Origin: an uncultured Eubacteriales bacterium | GTDB lineage: Bacteria; Bacillota; Clostridia; Christensenellales; Aristaeellaceae | Direction: 5' to 3' | Assembly: GCA_902788445.1 (NCBI GenBank) | Contig: CADAKE010000007.1 | Span: 1,182-65,181 of the forward strand | Length of the DNA stretch: 64,000 nucleotides | Part shown: piece after piece, positions 4,909 through 57,011 of the stretch | How the letters are laid out: every line of letters begins with the position of its first letter | Position numbering within the stretch: position 1 is the first letter of the stretch | The notes under the pieces: generated by a model | Seen by the model: the letters and a program-made list of their open reading frames with translations, nothing else | The model's database searches: none | What the model was told of the DNA's origin: nothing | Translations under genes and position numbers: made by a program

Positions 4909-7031
4909 GCCTCGTCCTCCGTTTCCTCCGGCGCCTTCACCTCCACCCGGTGGCGGCAGGTTTCATTGCTGCACAGATACCAGGTCTCCCCCTTGCGGGA
5001 GCGCTTGAGCGTCATGTAACTGCCGCACTTTTCGCACTTCTGGTCAACCGGCATCTCCCAGGACACGAAATCGCATTCAGGGTAGTTTTCGCACCCGTAG
5101 AACTTGCGGTTCTTGCGGCTGGTCTTTTCCAGCAGCCGCCCGCCGCACTTGGGGCACTTGGCCTCAATATAGGTCAGGATGGGCTTGGTGTTCCGGCAGT
5201 CCGGGAAATTGGGGCAGGCCAGGAATTTGCCGAACCGCCCCACGCGGTACACCATCTGGGCCCCGCACTTATCGCAGATCACATCACTGGGCTCGTCCTT
5301 GATTTCCACCTTTTCGATTTCGTCCTCGGCGTGCTTGAGCATCTTTTCAAAGGGCGGGTAGAATTCGCGCAGCACCTTGTGCCAGTCCTCGCCGCCTTCT
5401 TCCACTTCGTCCAGTTCTTCTTCCAGTTCGGCGGTGAATTCCGTGTCCACGATGGGGCCGAAGTATTCGATCATCATGGCGTTGATCGTTCGGCCCAGTT
5501 CCGTGGGATAGAGGCGCTTGTTTTCGCGCATCACGTAGCCCCGGGCAATGATGGTGGTGATGGTCGGGGCGTAGGTGGACGGCCTGCCGATGCCTTTTTC
5601 TTCCAGGGTCTTGACCAGGCTGGCTTCGGTGTAGCGGGCGGGCGGCTGGGTGAAATGCTGCTGGCTCTCCACCGATTCGATGGTGACGGGAGCCCCTTCC
5701 TCAAACTGCGGCAGGGTGGTTTCCGCCGCTTCCTGGGTTTCGTCCGTGCTTTCCTCGTACACACTGGTGAAGCCCGCAAAGCGCTTGTGTTCGCCGTAGA
5801 AGCGCATTCCTACGCCGTCCCCGGCCACGTCCATGCTCATGGTGTCGTACAGGGCGGGCCGCATCTGGCTGGCCAGGAAGCGGGAATAGATTAGGCGGTA
5901 GAGTTGGAACTGCTCTTTGGTCAGCGAAGCTTTGATGGATTCCGGCGTGCGCGTCACGTCCGTCGGGCGGATGGCCTCGTGGGCATCCTGGGCATTGCGG
6001 CGGCCCTTAAATTCATTGGGCGTTTCGGGCAGGTATTCCGCGCCGAAGCGTTCCGGGATGTAAGCCCGCACGGCGTCCAGCGCTTCCTGCGACACGCGCA
6101 CGCTGTCGGTACGGATGTAGGTCACGATGCCCTGGGTGCCCTCGCCCTCCAGATCGACGCCTTCGTAAAGCTGCTGCACCACCTGCATGGTCTTTTGCGT
6201 AGTGAAATTCAGCTTGCGGCCCGCCTCTTGCTGCAAGGAGGAGGTGGTGAACGGCGGCGCGGGCACCTTTTTCTTTTCCCCGTGCTTGATGCCATACACC
6301 GCGAACCGGGCGTTTTCCACGCGCTTCTGCGCTTCCTGAGCCTGGGCTTCGTTGTGGAGCTCGGCCTTTTCGCCGTCCAGGGTGTTGAGGCGGAGCAGGA
6401 ACGTGGTCTTGCGGCCCCGGGCGCTGGGCAGGAGGGCGTTGGCGGTGATGTCCCAATATTCCTCGGGGATGAAATCCTCGATGTCCTGTTCGCGGTCGAC
6501 CACCAGCCGGGTGGCGACGGACTGCACGCGCCCGGCGCTCAGGCCCTTTTTCACCTTGGCCCACAGCAGCGGGCTGATCTTGTAGCCCACCAGCCGGTCC
6601 AGGGCGCGGCGGGCCTGCTGGGCGTCCACCCGCTCCATGTCGATGGGCCGGGGATTTTTCAGCGCGTTTTCCACAGCCTTTGCCGTCACTTCGTGGAATT
6701 CGATGCGGCAGGGCGCGGTCACGTCCATGCCCAGGGTCTGGGCCAGATGCCAGGAAATGGCTTCTCCCTCGCGGTCAGGGTCGGTCGCCAGGTAGATTTT
6801 GGAAGCGTTCTTCGCTTCCTTGCGGATCTTGGTCAAAATCTTGCCCCGGCCATGGATGGTGATGTATTTCATGGCGAAGTCCTGATCCACGTCCACGCCC
6901 AATTGGGACTTGGGCAGGTCGCGCACATGCCCCTGAGACGCCTCCACCTTGTAGCCTCGCCCCAGGAATTTTGCGATGGTGCGCGCCTTGGCGGGAGATT
7001 CCACGATAATCAGTTTCGATGCAGTTGCCAC
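4905..7031 (-). CDS. topA: DNA topoisomerase I
   Basis: [18 protein letters not shown] Toprim start and C-terminal Cys4 zinc ribbons ([25 protein letters not shown]). GTG start with GGAGG RBS. Confidence 0.95.
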
Positions 7032-7083: not shown

Positions 7084-7203
7084 GAGAGTACAGAGTACAG
7101 AGTTCAGAGTGCAGAGTTCAGATAATCTTGTTTTACACTTTATTGTATTATCAAATGCAGAAACAAAAATCTCTGCACTCTGTACTCTGAACTCTGTACT
7201 CTC
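7084..7203. repeat. Heptad-arm hairpin element H1 (unit CAGAGTN)
   Basis: The left arm 7084-7116 (GAGAGTA CAGAGTA CAGAGTT CAGAGTG CAGAG) pairs with the right arm 7171-7203 over 33 positions with 2 mismatches. 54-nt AT-rich spacer. Lies between the dprA stop and the topA start. Confidence 0.9.
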
Positions 7204-9917: not shown

Positions 9918-10028
9918 GAGAGAAGTTAGGAGATAAGAGTCAGGAGTTTTATCGTGTCCCGATCAGCAAGCTTCCAGCCTGTGTCCATTGTCCAAGCCAG
10001 ATAACTCCTATCTTCTATCTCCTCACTC
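9918..10028. repeat. Heptad-arm hairpin element H8 (unit TAGGAGA/TAAGAGT, imperfect)
   Basis: The left arm GAGAGAAGTTAGGAGATAAGAGTCAGGAGTT (9918-9948) faces AACTCCTATCTTCTATCTCCTCACTC (10003-10028). It starts 5 nt after the stop of the giant glycosyltransferase gene. Confidence 0.75.
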
Positions 10029-14244: not shown

Positions 14245-14653
14245 AAACGACGAGGCAGGGGCCTGTTCGGCCCCCGTACCCCTGAACCAGGAGGTTTCAC
14301 CTCCTGGACCTCTTGCCCCGGAAGATGCTTGTGCGGTGAAATGAAGTTGGTTCCCGGTGATGCGGGGAAGGACGCGGAAGTTTGACTTGACGCCGTTGTG
14401 CTTCTGGCCCGGCGTCCTTTGGACGCCAACCGGATGCGAAGCATCCGGGAAAGCCGGGGAATAATCCGCAGGGGAAAGCGAGCTTTCCCCCTCGGATTTT
14501 CCCGGGCTTTCTTGGGCCAGAAGCCTTCAAACTTCCCGTAACCCCAGCGCGGCAGGCGGAACTTGCTTTCTATCCCAAACGGACTCAATCGCCTGCTGGG
14601 ATGCAAGGGATGAAATCCCTTGCCGCAGGTCTGGGGGCGCGTAGCCCCCAGCG
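14245..14653. ncRNA. Structured element copy A (candidate large ncRNA, unclassified; orientation unresolved)
   Basis: Sits in a 479-bp gene-free gap. A nested multi-stem core (14402-14522) is closed by TTCTGGCCC/GGGCCAGAA. It is roughly nine-tenths identical to 52482-52602, with paired indels in stems. ORFs across it are not conserved in frame. Confidence 0.5.
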
Positions 14654-15039: not shown

Positions 15040-15606
15040 ACGCTGACGAAATGCCCGATGAAGGAGCGCCTGTGCTCCGGGCAGGGGCCGAGGTCTTTCA
15101 GCGCGGCAATGTGCTGGGCGGTGCCGTAGCCCTTGTGCTTCGCAAAGCCATAGCCGGGATACAGCCTGTCCAGTTCCTCCATCTGCCGGTCACGGGTCAC
15201 CTTGGCGATGATGCTCGCCGCGGCGATGCTGTAACACAGCGCGTCGCCATGAATGATGCCCCGTTCTTCCCCGGGCAATCCCAGCCCTTGCAGCGCGTCC
15301 GTTCAGGATGTTGTATTCGTCAATCTCCGCCGCGCTGGCCTGGCCGACGCCCACGAACAGGGCGGTTTCCATGATTTGTTCATACAACTTTTCCCGCCGG
15401 GATTCGGACAGCTTCTTGCTGTCGTCCACCCACAGGAGCAGCGGCTCCTTCGGCATCACCACGCAGGCGGCCACCACATTGCCCACCAGCGGCCCGCGCC
15501 CGGCCTCGTCCATGCCCGCGAAGCGAACGCCCGCCGCCCACAGGGGCTGGTCAGTCCGAATCAGGGTGTCCAGCCGCTCCCGGCGTTTCTCTTCCTGCTT
15601 GCTCAT
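15036..15606 (-). pseudogene. rnhB: ribonuclease HII, disrupted by an internal out-of-frame deletion
   Basis: The N-part (GMDEAGRGPLVGNVVAA ... [11 protein letters not shown]) and C-part ([37 protein letters not shown] ... HRRSF) are in different frames, joining near 15285-15295. About 25 residues expected between NIL and the GD motif are missing. Confidence 0.6.
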
Positions 15607-18956: not shown

Positions 18957-19059
18957 AAGGCAATAGGTATTAGGCATTAGGCAATAGGCATTAGTGATCT
19001 ACAATAGAAACTCGAAGCGCAGTTCAACTTTTTTCCTAATGCCTAATACCTATTGCCTT
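18957..19059. repeat. Heptad-arm hairpin element H3 (unit TAGGCAW)
   Basis: AAGGCAATAGGTATTAGGCATTAGG (18957-18981) pairs perfectly with CCTAATGCCTAATACCTATTGCCTT (19035-19059). The heptads continue into the spacer. Lies between convergent genes. Confidence 0.9.
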
Positions 19060-22591: not shown

Positions 22592-22645
22592 AGCGTCCCC
22601 CCTGAAAAAAGGGGCTGTGCGGAAACACAGCCCCGGTCGGTTCGG

Positions 22646-23320
<675 letters not shown>

Positions 23321-23418: not shown

Positions 23419-23628
23419 AAGGCAATAGGCAATAGGCATTAGGCATTAGGCAATAGGCAATAGTTCTATTTGGCTTTCGATATCATAACTGTTCAGTCCA
23501 GTTGCTTTCAAGAAAGTAACTATGTCATCCCGACCGGAGCGCAGCGGAGTGGAGGGACCTAAAAGCCGGGTATTCTTTTTTCTGGCGTGCTAATTCCCTA
23601 ATGCCTATTGCCTAATGCCTATTGCCTT
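23419..23628. repeat. Heptad-arm hairpin element H4 (unit TAGGCAW) with an enlarged spacer
   Basis: The left-arm heptad run is 23419-23463. The right arm 23596-23628 is CCCTAATGCCTATTGCCTAATGCCTATTGCCTT. It shares TTTAAGT/ACTTAAA outer flanks with H3. The 132-nt spacer carries a 36-nt motif (23524-23559) and a T-run. Confidence 0.85.
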
Positions 23629-38987: not shown

Positions 38988-39010
38988 AGTTATCTGTTCC
39001 TATGTCTTTC

Positions 39011-39111
39011 AAAGTTCAAAGTTCTAAGTTGTAAGTTCTAAGTAATAGAATATTCTACTTGCTGCGCTTCATAAACTCCGTCTCAGAACTTAGAACGAAG
39101 AACTTAGAACT
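39011..39111. repeat. Heptad-arm hairpin element H5 (unit AAGTTCW)
   Basis: AAAGTTCAAAGTTCTAAGTTGTAAGTTCTAAGT (39011-39043) faces CAGAACTTAGAACGAAGAACTTAGAACT (39084-39111), giving 9 bp, an internal loop, then 12 bp. It ends 6 nt from the upstream gene's stop. Confidence 0.8.
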
Positions 39112-39117
39112 AATAAA

Positions 39118-40236
39118 TCAAATATTGAACAGCGCTTTCAGCGCTTTTTCGTCGATGTTAGTGCCAATGACCACCAGGCGGCCCGCGTAGTCCGGCGTGC
39201 TGGGACGAATCTGCAATTCGCCGGGCACGTAGTCAAACTGGAACCAATCCCCTTCGGGCGTCTGCAAAATGCCCTTGGCGCGCAGGATCAGGCCGTATTC
39301 CTCCTGGTCGGACAGCGCGTCGGTCATGCCGCGGATCTCGTCCTGAGTGAAGCGGCGGGCCGTTTCCACGCCCACGTTTTCAAACACCTCGTCCGCGTCG
39401 TGTTCGCCGGGATGATGGTGATGGTGGTGATGATGCTCATGATCGTGGTCATGATGATGGTGCTCATGCTCATCCTCGTCATGGTCATGATGGTGATGTT
39501 CGTGCTCATCCTCATCTTCGTCGTGATCATGATGATGGTGTTCATGTTCGTCCTCATCATGATCGTGGTGGTGATGATGTTCATGCTCGTCCTCGTCGTC
39601 GTCATCATCGTCCAGTTCCACGTGGATTTCGATGGGCTTGCCGCTCTCGATCACTTCCAGCATGGTGTCGGGGTCGAGATCATCCCAGGGGGTGGTGATG
39701 ATGCGGGCGTCGGGATGCTGCTCCAGGATCAGGGCGCGGCTCTTTTCCACCCGGTCAGCGGCCAAAAGCTGGGTGCGGCTGAAAATGATGGTGGCGGCGG
39801 ACTTTACCTGGTCAATGAAGAATTCGCCGAAGTTCTTCATATACATGCGGCACTTGCTGGCGTCCACCACGGTGGCGCAGCCCGCGATCGTCAGGTCGTC
39901 ATGGCGGCTCTTGGCCTTTTCCACAGCGGCGATGATCTCGCTCAGCTTGCCCACGCCGGTGGGCTCCACCAGGATGCGGTCGGGATGATAGGTGTCGATC
40001 AGTTCGTCGATGGACTTCTGGAAGTCCCCGGCCAGGGTGCAGCAGATGCAGCCGGAATTGAGCTCCGTCACGGTGATGCCGGCGTCCTTCATAAAGCCGC
40101 CGTCAATGCCGATTTCGCCGTATTCGTTTTCCAGCAGGATCACCTTTTCCTTGGCGATCTTGCCGCCCAGGAGCTTTTTAATCAGCGTGGTTTTGCCAGC
40201 GCCGAGAAAACCGGAAATAATGTTGACCTTTACCAT
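39118..40236 (-). CDS. COG0523 (CobW/YjiA/ZigA-type) metallochaperone GTPase with a long His/Asp/Glu-rich insert
   Basis: GFLGAGKTTL Walker A, GCICCTLAGDF CxCC metal motif, and about 70 aa of HEHHHHDHDEDE-type repeats. Confidence 0.85.
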   Translation of the reverse strand: MVKVNIISGFLGAGKTTLIKKLLGGKIAKEKVILLENEYGEIGIDGGFMKDAGITVTELNSGCICCTLAGDFQKSIDELIDTYHPDRILVEPTGVGKLSEIIAAVEKAKSRHDDLTIAGCATVVDASKCRMYMKNFGEFFIDQVKSAATIIFSRTQLLAADRVEKSRALILEQHPDARIITTPWDDLDPDTMLEVIESGKPIEIHVELDDDDDDEDEHEHHHHHDHDEDEHEHHHHDHDEDEDEHEHHHHDHDEDEHEHHHHDHDHEHHHHHHHHPGEHDADEVFENVGVETARRFTQDEIRGMTDALSDQEEYGLILRAKGILQTPEGDWFQFDYVPGELQIRPSTPDYAGRLVVIGTNIDEKALKALFNI

Positions 40237-41615: not shown

Positions 41616-41655
41616 AGAAGAAAAGCAGCCAGACGGATATGTTCCGCCTGGCTGC
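41616..41655 (-). terminator. intrinsic terminator candidate after the lipoprotein gene
   Basis: On the minus strand: GCAGCCAG / CTGGCTGC stem followed by TTTTCTTCT. Confidence 0.6.
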
Positions 41656-47655: not shown

Positions 47656-47780
47656 AGATAGGAGATAGGAATTAGGAGATAGAAGATTGATCGTGTCCGA
47701 TGCAAAAGCGCAAGCGGATGCAGCAAATAAAACGCATCATCATTTTTTCATCTCCTATCTCCTCTCTCCTAACTCCTCTC
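47656..47780. repeat. Heptad-arm hairpin element H6 (unit TAGGAGA/TAGAAGA)
   Basis: AGATAGGAGATAGGAATTAGGAGATAGAAGAT (47656-47687) faces CATCTCCTATCTCCTCTCTCCTAACTCCTCTC (47749-47780). Pairing is imperfect and register-ambiguous. Confidence 0.8.
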
Positions 47781-47882
47781 TGGCATGGAGTTCTTATGCG
47801 GTAAGCGACTGAACAATTACTTGAAGCGATTGAAAAACCTGATGAACAAAAGTCTCCGTCCGCGGGGAGAAGGGCAGGATAG

Positions 47883-51722: not shown

Positions 51723-51840
51723 AGATAGGAGTTAGGAGAGAGAAGATAGGAGATGAATGATAGACAAATCATAAAGAAGGCTGACTTGCGTTCCTGATTA
51801 CAAGCCTTCACTCCTATCCCCTATCTTCTATCTCCTATCT
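51723..51840. repeat. Heptad-arm hairpin element H7 (unit TAGGAGA family)
   Basis: AGATAGGAGTTAGGAGAGAGAAGATAGGAGATG (51723-51755) faces CACTCCTATCCCCTATCTTCTATCTCCTATCT (51809-51840). Lies between divergently transcribed genes. Confidence 0.8.
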
Positions 51841-52270: not shown

Positions 52271-52294
52271 GGAGGCCAAGGGGCCTCCTTTTTT
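52271..52294 (+). terminator. intrinsic terminator
   Basis: GGAGGCC AAGG GGCCTCC followed by T6, 13 nt after the stop codon. Confidence 0.9.
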
Positions 52295-52327: not shown

Positions 52328-52648
52328 TAACCAGAGCGAGGGCCTGTGCGGCCCTCGTGCACCTGCACCAAAGGACTTCGTCCTCTGGACTCCAGCAGCG
52401 GAATAGACTTGCGCGAATGATTCAAGCTGCTTCCCGCTGATGTTTGGAAGGACGCGGATACTCCACTTGGCCGCGTTGTGTTTCTGGCCCGGCGTCCTTC
52501 GGACGCCATCCCGGATGCGAAGCATCCGGGGAAAGCCAGGGAATAATCCGCAGGGAAAGCTCGCTTTCCCCTCGGATTTTCCCGGGCTTTCTTGGGCCAG
52601 AAACCCTCACCACCCTGGCGCAGGTCTGGGGGCGCGGAGCCCCCAGCG
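52328..52648. ncRNA. Structured element copy B (candidate large ncRNA, unclassified; orientation unresolved)
   Basis: Same architecture as 14245-14653. Core 52482-52602: closing stem TTCTGGCCC/GGGCCAGAA; hairpins GGCGTCC-TTC-GGACGCC and CCCGGATGC-GAA-GCATCCGGG; three-tier stem GAAAGCCAGGG..AATCCG..GGGAAAGC/GCTTTCCC..CGGATT..CCCGGGCTTTC. Terminal hairpin CTGGGGG-CGCGGAG-CCCCCAG. Confidence 0.5.
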
Positions 52649-56885: not shown

Positions 56886-57011
56886 GAGCGAGAAGTTAGG
56901 AGATAGGAGAGCGGAGATGGATCATGTTTCCAATTGCGCGGCTGAAAAAAATACAGACGCGAAGCAAACACATCATATAACTCCTCTCTTCTCTCTCCTC
57001 TCTCCTCTCTT
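56886..57011. repeat. Heptad-arm hairpin element H9 (unit TAGGAGA/GAGAGGA, imperfect)
   Basis: GAGCGAGAAGTTAGGAGATAGGAGAGCGGAGATG (56886-56919) faces AACTCCTCTCTTCTCTCTCCTCTCTCCTCTCTT (56979-57011). It starts 3 nt after the SLT stop. Confidence 0.75.

Follow-up and report, generated by a model that had tools for sequence, protein, structure and literature searches.

Tandem repeats of heptamers have been noted in bacteria since 1990. In this study a stretch of 64,000 nucleotides (nt) of contig CADAKE010000007.1 from an uncultured Eubacteriales bacterium (the window, meaning this whole stretch) was analysed, in which nine long hairpins with arms of tandem 7-nt units are present, and these heptamer elements were compared with the arrangements described in other lineages. 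In Xanthomonas campestris and X. axonopodis pv. citri about 185 GGGAATC arrays occur per genome (Rehm et al., 2015, PLoS One, PMC4692102). Among them are 70-75 convergent inverted pairs per genome, with the G-rich sequence first and one array on each strand; the arrays mostly consist of about four units, 89-93% are intergenic, mostly between co-directional genes, and most are transcribed (PMC4692102). Their mean distance is 28 nt to the upstream open reading frame (ORF) versus 160 nt to the downstream ORF. Array length varies between the species while the single or paired type is kept, and the authors invoked G-quadruplex formation (PMC4692102). In heterocystous cyanobacteria, sequences termed STRRs (short tandemly repeated repetitive), usually with 7-bp units, make up intergenic hairpins, as between hupS and hupL, for which roles in transcript stability, translational coupling and termination were proposed (PMC2670836). 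In the hupS-asr0689 spacer of Nostoc, CTGACTA arrays come about 85 nt behind TTGTCAG arrays (PMC2408588). Furthermore, (GATAGRA)n arrays were described in Chloroflexus aurantiacus (PMC6749651), and direct TAACTGA repeats upstream of start codons in Beggiatoaceae (PMC4679880). This last report presents heptanucleotide repeats as the commonest long simple-sequence repeats of prokaryotes and attributes them to slippage.

The architecture of the window elements belongs to this known, obscure kind, of which they are an additional representative; membership is by architecture and not by unit sequence or G-quadruplex chemistry. In common with the Xanthomonas GGGAATC pairs they have the 7-nt unit, arrays of at least three units, convergent G-rich strands, the stem-loop form, dispersal and proximity to the upstream ORF. 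Xanthomonas differs in having a single unit with a G-tract and many solitary arrays, whereas here at least four to six units without G-tracts coexist, all arrays in the window are paired, the spacers are long and AT-rich and the host belongs to the Clostridia. With no G-tract in any of the units, G-quadruplex formation is excluded as the class-wide denominator, and the paired hairpin form in a Gram-positive anaerobe, with units that are not G-quadruplex-capable, speaks against a general explanation by this chemistry. Most STRRs are arranged as direct arrays, with pairs only in some cases. Those at hupS-hupL and upstream of hoxW in Nostoc/Anabaena resemble the window elements as 7-bp repeats with several units per genome that are intergenic and hairpin-capable; they differ in unit sequence and phylum, and homology is not expected. 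The units of the window elements are not GGGAATC, GGGGAYT or STRR1-3. The GATAGRA unit of Chloroflexus is the same as that of the TAGGAGA/TAGAAGA copies in the window, whereas the Beggiatoaceae arrangement differs from the inverted pairs. An earlier note made from the DNA alone had proposed a search for a described family, and the class is indeed described already, by the convergent pairs just 3' of ORFs in Xanthomonas (PMC4692102) and the 7-bp STRR hairpins in cyanobacteria (PMC2670836). A description of heptamer-array hairpins in Firmicutes was not found in a limited literature search. As detailed below, the heptamer elements form a dispersed, lineage-limited family of palindromic repeats that are gained and lost, are occasionally copied, change by slippage and are under selection in their arm cores.

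The earlier note had listed a nine-member family of long hairpins with tandem-heptamer arms in the window. All nine elements are present and all fold better than shuffled sequences (z of -3.7 to -10.7; 0 of 200 shuffles as good). Their positions are as follows, without strand unless one is given.

7084..7122: 5' arm of the type example, GAGAGTA (CAGAGTD)x4 CAGA; period 7, 5.4 copies according to Tandem Repeats Finder (TRF)
7123..7169: AT-rich, unique spacer of the type example, about 22% GC, without similarity to other spacers
7170..7203: 3' arm of the type example, based on TRF, complementarity and fold
9918..10028: degenerate TAGGAGA/TAGAAGA copy, 5 nt past the stop of a PMT-family glycosyltransferase gene, with a comM-like start 64 nt on; z of -3.7
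18957..19059: TAGGCAW copy between a convergent NTP-transferase gene and mnmA, with an outer TTTAAGT/ACTTAAA stem
23419..23628: TAGGCAW copy, 39 nt past the stop of a DAGK/YegS-like gene; spacer of 134 nt
39007..39111: AAGTTCW copy between two cobW-family genes, with a stop 6 nt before and a start 19 nt after it; arms without purine bias
47656..47781: TAGGAGA copy, 43 nt past the stop of an RCC1-repeat gene
51723..51840: TAGGAGA copy in the divergent region between a helix-turn-helix gene and a DUF3783 gene; the sole copy without an adjacent stop codon
55983..56115: CAGAGTD copy between coaE and the SLT transglycosylase gene
56886..57011, plus strand: TAGGAGA-type copy, 3 nt past the SLT stop and within the ORF of an SBP_bac_5 lipoprotein (start 56854), read through in frame

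An arm is an array of 3-6 heptamers, each with a fixed 6-nt core and one free base, and the spacer between the convergent arrays is 37-134 nt long, mostly AT-rich and unique. The units in the window are CAGAGTD, TAGGCAW, AAGTTCW and TAGGAGA, and a G3 tract is present in none of them. TRF detected period-7 arrays at eight of the nine loci, always as inverted pairs; it missed the degenerate locus at 9918-10028, which yet folds at the z value given above. It also reports period 14, because in the CAGAGTD family the seventh bases of neighbouring units tend to differ. When the window was scanned for arrays of at least four units with at least 85% identity, 11 were found at period 7 and 0 at periods 6, 8, 9, 10 and 11. 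Every heptamer array in the window has an inverted partner. At the seventh base of the CAGAGTD units A, T and G occur, and C hardly ever. The purine-rich arm had been assigned to the 5' side in all nine elements; the actual number is eight, as the copy at 39007-39111 is balanced (purine fraction of 0.50 in the left and 0.67 in the right arm). An excess of G over C in the 5' arm is seen in 9/9 window copies. The description of the elements as intergenic stood for the copies that lie within the 9.3% non-coding share of the window and not for that at 56886-57011, which is inside an ORF. An outer motif, CACTTAAAG, was considered as a family-wide feature and rejected, being restricted to the TAGGCAW copies and without overall enrichment. 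The spacer at 23419 contains a GC-rich insert, of which no second copy was present among the fetched loci.

In the type example, the 5' arm reads on the plus strand from 7084 as GAGAGTA, CAGAGTA, CAGAGTT, CAGAGTG and CAGAGTT followed by CAGA. After the 47-nt AT-rich spacer the 3' arm, CTCTGCACTCTGTACTCTGAACTCTGTACTCTC, is the reverse complement of the same heptamers. The element lies 12 nt past the dprA stop (7216, minus strand) and 52 nt ahead of the topA start (7031). The minimum-free-energy fold of the RNA gives an outer stem of 31 pairs with two single mismatches, both at seventh positions, which agrees with the pairing over 33 positions with two such mismatches that had been drawn before (free energy of -62.8 kcal/mol; z of -10.7 against 200 shuffles). 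As to the suggested re-pairing of the stem in registers shifted by 7 nt, complementarity is equal, at 88%, in two registers that differ by multiples of 7 nt. CRISPR arrays consist of direct repeats of about 24-48 nt with unique spacers of similar size. The elements are not of that type, as had been stated, since they have 7-nt units in inverted arrays around one spacer. Rfam 15 gave 0 matches in the window at the gathering threshold, and a permissive search gave sub-threshold eukaryotic microRNA-precursor hairpins alone, on both strands.

An independent metagenome scaffold (L001; loci and contigs from outside the window are designated by L and a number) is 99.93% identical to the window in the larger aligned block and 100% in the other. 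It differs by 9 single-nucleotide polymorphisms and a 59-nt indel, and its hairpins at 7084 and 9918 are identical. Because L001 carries the same hairpins and orthologous copies occur in separate metagenome-assembled genomes, an assembly artefact is excluded.

The elements have a distinct position relative to genes. Eight of the nine had been said to begin shortly after a stop codon, and the measured distances are indeed 3-43 nt, with as exception the copy at 51723, between divergent genes. Among 17 co-directional elements from the window and related loci, 16 have the upstream stop nearer than the downstream start (median distances of 15 nt and 59 nt, respectively; sign test p = 0.0003). The copy at the junction of SLT with the gene for the solute-binding protein (SBP) lipoprotein deserves separate description. 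In relatives without an element, the SBP lipoprotein begins with MRSxCSIIIK, overlaps the 3' end of SLT and continues directly with the signal peptide, which is hydrophobic. An element is situated directly behind this SBP N-terminus in the window, L002, L004 and L054, and the frame is open through an insert of 38-47 codons, after which it rejoins the signal peptide in frame. The TAG-containing units of the window copy are two adjacent ones, which is the maximum without an in-frame stop. This conservation of the open frame implies that the element is transcribed and very probably translated at this site and that it cannot be an efficient terminator there. The units at this junction are TAGGAGA in the window versus CAGAGTD in L002, L004 and L054. 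The idea that the arms were swapped around an orthologous spacer was examined by alignment, which has just two common 8-mers, at different spacing. Rickettsia palindromic elements (RPE) are palindromic repeats that lie in frame in protein-coding genes and are kept open. The SBP site resembles these by its in-frame open insertion, at one site in four genomes; the sequence family is unrelated.

The same architecture was found outside the close relatives of the window. A metagenome scan with the pattern CAGAGTN x3.5 yielded at least 31 further inverted pairs on contigs of 35-69% GC, and two scans of viral contigs yielded 26 more. Among the matches listed, L116, L149, L150, L155, L186 and L196 are members of the rumen family (L116 includes the compound hairpins described below), and many of the metagenome pairs bear other units and come from other samples. 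CAGAGTD units recur in contigs from soil, water and rumen. The polarity, with the purine-rich arm 5' and G in excess of C in that arm, was observed in 41 of 44 other pairs among the matches listed. Contig L211, in view of its genes for terminase, portal, major head and tail fibre, is a genuine structural module of a phage. It has four hairpins, three of which start at most 10 nt from a stop and the fourth 63 nt downstream; two of them are found directly 3' of the major-head and terminase genes, and the Shine-Dalgarno site of the next gene comes after each hairpin. Contig L222, with portal, major head and tape measure genes, has six hairpins, of which five are at 3-21 nt past stops, two of these bracketing the major-head gene; the sixth is without a called gene close upstream. 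Phages thus place heptamer hairpins after highly expressed genes. The hairpins directly 3' of the major-head genes in L211 and L222 are positioned as are the stem-loops after phage major capsid genes.

As a separate observation, a viral-contig lineage of 67-68% GC contains TAGGCAG-array hairpins with a conserved loop of about 18 nt, GGGAAGTGCTCCGTGCAC, that lies either way round with respect to the flanks (flip/flop).

L248 504-586: TAGGCAG-array hairpin
L248 919-1005: TAGGCAG-array hairpin
L248 4600-4671: TAGGCAG-array hairpin
L248 9651-9718: TAGGCAG-array hairpin
L256 3430-3530: TAGGCAG-array hairpin

The evolution of the arms was followed in relatives of the window, for which 80 polA loci were fetched. 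L007 and L029 have two elements in common, and in this single species pair the arms show 0/129 differences and the spacers 6/96. At four-fold sites of polA, 67 of 407 positions (16.5%) differ between the same two loci. This indicates strong constraint on the arms and some on the spacers; the arms are under purifying selection once an element is in place. The number of units does vary: L080 is two units shorter than L007, in one arm only, and L002 differs from L004. Such differences between orthologues substantiate the proposal of the earlier note that the arms evolve by slippage.

We infer that the heptamer hairpins may well act in mRNA, as intercistronic or 3'-end hairpins. The element would be transcribed as the tail of the mRNA of the upstream gene, and the transcript would fold into a long stem punctuated by mismatches. 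This stem could serve as a barrier to 3' exonucleases, as a processing site for double-strand RNases, or as both, by which the relative stability of the upstream message would be set while transcription into the next gene would not be stopped. As the hairpin would join its own two ends, it would be tolerated between tightly coupled genes and even inside the region that encodes a signal peptide. More speculatively, the G/purine-first polarity might keep the first-transcribed, transiently single-stranded arm from a C-rich, rut-like state. The proposed role would be comparable to that of repetitive extragenic palindromic (REP) elements in Escherichia coli operons and of the RNase III hairpins between phage T7 genes. 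REPs are known to stabilise upstream mRNA in proteobacteria. In phage T7, RNase III hairpins are located between genes and transcription continues beyond them; these sites are not built from tandem repeats. By analogy, the heptamer elements may be likened to the T7 RNase III hairpins and the capsid-gene stem-loops as long, imperfect, mismatch-bearing stems in intercistronic positions. A role in mRNA fits the placement in phages, the positional asymmetry, the missing U-tract and the cases of read-through. The phage placement turns the question of the heptamer repeats into a concrete hypothesis on mRNA ends and stability.

Several observations weigh against such a role. The copy at 51723 sits in a divergent promoter region, without an upstream mRNA to protect. 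The seventh bases match between the arms in 28 of 44 cases versus a shuffle mean of 29.5, so that there is no covariation, and the pairing through seventh positions that the earlier note had drawn is no better than chance. The stem is therefore a series of conserved 6-bp blocks rather than a continuous duplex, and selection on pairing is visible solely via the conservation of the cores. Gene direction is defined for 25 elements, of which 10 fold better as the sense and 11 as the antisense strand; without such a bias there is no G-U signature that marks the transcribed strand. Conservation of the arms could equally reflect a function in DNA binding or transposition. Finally, the size of the unit, 7 nt, is without explanation in a model based on mRNA hairpins, and the near-universal polarity, the free seventh base and the copy at the divergent promoter are likewise not accounted for. 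A motif resembling a -10 box behind the 5' arm, WWTATAG, was considered as a portable promoter and rejected; it is present in about one-third of the elements and shows a weak, non-significant orientation bias (7 sense versus 3 antisense, among 24 co-directional elements). Spacer matches in a promoter scan were sporadic and nothing systematic was seen.

Possibly, with clearly less expectation than for an mRNA hairpin, the elements are selfish, non-autonomous mobile DNA, similar to MITEs (miniature transposable elements with inverted repeats) or to REPINs, with the arrays as multi-site transposase-binding ends and the transposase encoded elsewhere in the genome. The arms would then be conserved in order to stay mobilisable, and the sites behind stop codons would be those where insertions are harmless. 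The distribution among relatives is patchy and lineage limited, as would fit such DNA. By PolA, the closest genomes belong to uncultured Clostridia of rumen and gut, some with records labelled Christensenellaceae or Christensenellales. Of the 12 loci whose PolA shows 84% identity or more, 8 have inverted heptamer pairs, as opposed to 0 of 68 more distant loci; L003 and L021 have no elements despite belonging to the close group. Additional units in the relatives are GAGAGTT, AAAGTGR and TAGGAGG. Whole elements are present or absent at orthologous sites. The polA-coaE junction is empty in the window, L003, L004, L006, L080, L008 and L009, which have an ATGA overlap or a gap of 16-21 nt, and L005 (the sister of L006), L007 and L029 (sisters of L080) and L054 have a hairpin of some 145 nt in it. 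At the coaE-SLT junction, the window and L002 have an element, L004 (the sister of L002), L003 and L021 have none, and in L054 the site is degenerate. Spacers that came in with the elements are foreign to the orthologous sites that are empty.

Contigs L226 and L238, which are under one IMG/VR source number (2799112440), have in common dispersed repeats only. A whole heptamer element in these contigs, spacer included, is 90% identical between non-homologous flanks, from which it follows that complete elements can be copied to new sites. The idea of a mobilised miniature element, put forward in the earlier note, is in keeping with this copying and with the gain and loss at orthologous sites. It also gains from nested or compound hairpins, in which outer TAGGCAA arms enclose inner CAGAGTD arms around a common spacer core, ATCCAGACTTGGAAYG.

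L006 1-90: compound hairpin
L116 5330-5499: compound hairpin
L116 10080-10260: compound hairpin

The L006 contig ends inside its compound hairpin, so that the repeats break assemblies, and such a break is likewise what mobile repeats would produce. In practice the elements also create spurious ORF extensions and can lie in frame within genes. Against mobility stands that neither a convincing target-site duplication nor an insertion consensus was seen when the filled and empty polA-coaE and coaE-SLT sites were compared (ambiguous overlap of at most 2 nt). The spacers are unique in nearly all of 82 pairs among the matches listed, where common loops are confined to orthologues and one paralogous pair, and none of those matches, with pairs searched out to 2.5 kb, is a copy with an ORF in a long spacer. 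At least six unrelated units in one clade would need several transposases, and several copies are located in compact phage structural operons, at positions relevant for expression. A look for a transposase, including REP-associated tyrosine transposases (RAYTs), or for a reverse transcriptase found none among the approximately 52 annotated genes of the window. The selfish and the mRNA-hairpin explanations are compatible, and the former keeps substantial weight.

REPs, which are imperfect palindromes of 20-40 nt, bear a conserved terminal tag (GTAG or CGTC) and are linked to transposases of the RAYT type, whose genes typically have REPs at their flanks. With REPs, with the bacterial interspersed mosaic elements (BIMEs) that contain them and with REPINs, which are inverted doublets around a spacer (PMC3116915), the heptamer elements share that they are multi-copy extragenic palindromes 3' of genes. 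They differ in being without a tag and without a tandem-free palindrome, and in having termini that vary between unit types. That they are not REPs, as had been held, is in line with the lack of a GTAG-type tag, which in this comparison only an unrelated doublet at 1466-1571 has. This REPIN-like doublet is located between the hslU stop and the cmk start and consists of two inverted GTAG-GGGCGGAT-ATC-ATCCGCCC sequences (a GTAG-tagged mini-palindrome) with 54 nt of AT-rich DNA between them. It is laid out overall like a heptamer element, except that the arms do not consist of tandem repeats, and a further copy was found neither in the window nor in any fetched locus.

Other dispersed repeat families, which are GC-rich and have motifs such as CCTTCCCCTGAAGGGGAAGG and CCTCATCCG in common, also occur in the clade. 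In L002 it is such a GC-rich repeat (6585-6836), and not a heptamer hairpin, that occupies the polA-coaE junction.

L002 6585-6836: GC-rich dispersed repeat
L226 1932-2076: GC-rich dispersed repeat
L226 11000-11840: GC-rich dispersed repeat
L238 865-975: GC-rich dispersed repeat
L238 1493-1638: GC-rich dispersed repeat
L238 8087-8199: GC-rich dispersed repeat

It is unlikely that the elements are unusual bidirectional terminators, in which the pyrimidine-rich 3' arm would provide a weak RNA:DNA hybrid and several hairpin registers would be available behind the polymerase. Their location at 0-45 nt past stop codons would suit this, as would the symmetric polarity on both strands and the equal complementarity of the alternative registers, and between some convergent pairs (18957, L005 15903 and L007 15559) the element is the sole strong structure. 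An intrinsic terminator has a short GC-rich stem, a loop of 3-8 nt and a U-tract. The loops of 37-134 nt far exceed this size and a U-tract is missing: the 10 nt past the 3' arm contain 3.4 T in the sense and 3.6 in the antisense direction, which confirms that these are not U-tract terminators. A terminator scan called no heptamer element, while it found canonical sites with a hairpin and a T-tract elsewhere in the window, for instance at 22611-22634, 41625-41655 and 52271-52288. In addition, elements are found inside coding sequence, between the formerly overlapping polA and coaE and upstream of essential phage structural genes, and one copy is situated between divergent genes. The termination role that the earlier note had offered is for these reasons (no U-tract, large loops and read-through) disfavoured in its classical form.

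We regard it as improbable that the heptamer hairpins form a cross-phylum class of elements, in part carried on phages, with dedicated machinery by which they are made or read. This machinery could be a polymerase or reverse transcriptase activity adding G-rich repeats of 7 nt to 3' ends, or else a heptad-reading protein. It would account for the invariant 7-nt unit, the G/purine-first polarity and the free, uncorrelated seventh base, and also for the many coexisting units and for the recurrence of units such as GATAGRA in Chloroflexus and CAGAGTD.

The free seventh base next to a conserved core, without covariation between the arms, and the absence of asymmetry of the transcribed strand are what would be expected of arrays that bind a nucleoid-associated or regulatory protein at the DNA level, with 6-bp cores every 7 bp (three units corresponding to two helical turns) in a symmetric convergent platform. 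This is very unlikely in view of the many unrelated cores per genome or clade (CAGAGT, TAGGCA, AAGTTC, TAGGAG, AAAGTG and GAGAGTT) and of still other cores in the same architecture in unrelated lineages; to our knowledge there is no candidate protein. That polymerase slippage on inverted repeats already in place gave rise to the elements as neutral by-products, with neither function nor mobility, is hardly credible, for although unit numbers change between orthologues and heptanucleotide repeats are attributed to slippage in PMC4679880, the arms show no substitutions against 16.5% at neutral sites, insertions of whole elements carry foreign spacers, paralogous copies exist and the biases in position and polarity are strong.

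Some further features of the window were recorded. It comes from a Christensenellales-like metagenome-assembled genome of rumen Clostridia and has about 60% GC, with a GC content at third codon positions (GC3) near 0.8, and a housekeeping gene order of the Firmicutes type (rnhB, yraN, the PMT-family glycosyltransferase gene, comM, dprA, topA, trmFO and hslVU, and later polA, coaE, SLT, the SBP lipoprotein gene, nrdR and spo0A). At 15299/15300, inside rnhB (RNase HII), 59 nt that are present in L001 are missing between short ACG microhomologies. This gap shifts the frame, which leaves 162 amino acids in the window versus 209 in L001, and reflects an assembly error or else a pseudogene at strain level. 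Two copies of a non-coding repeat that is GC-rich, structure-rich and about 270 nt long are present, at about 14250-14550 upstream of the PMT-family gene and at 52330-52610 upstream of polA. The copies are about 81% identical over about 270 nt by BLAST, and a MAFFT alignment of the whole intergenic regions has a mean column identity of 77%. Both contain an identical terminator-like hairpin, CTCGGATTTTCCCGGG, and the repeat gave no Rfam match at the gathering threshold. Two coding repeats are unrelated to the heptamer elements, namely a collagen-like Gly-X-Y repeat protein (Pfam Collagen) encoded at 22646-23269 and a histidine-rich tandem-repeat stretch at 39411-39612 inside a CobW-family gene.

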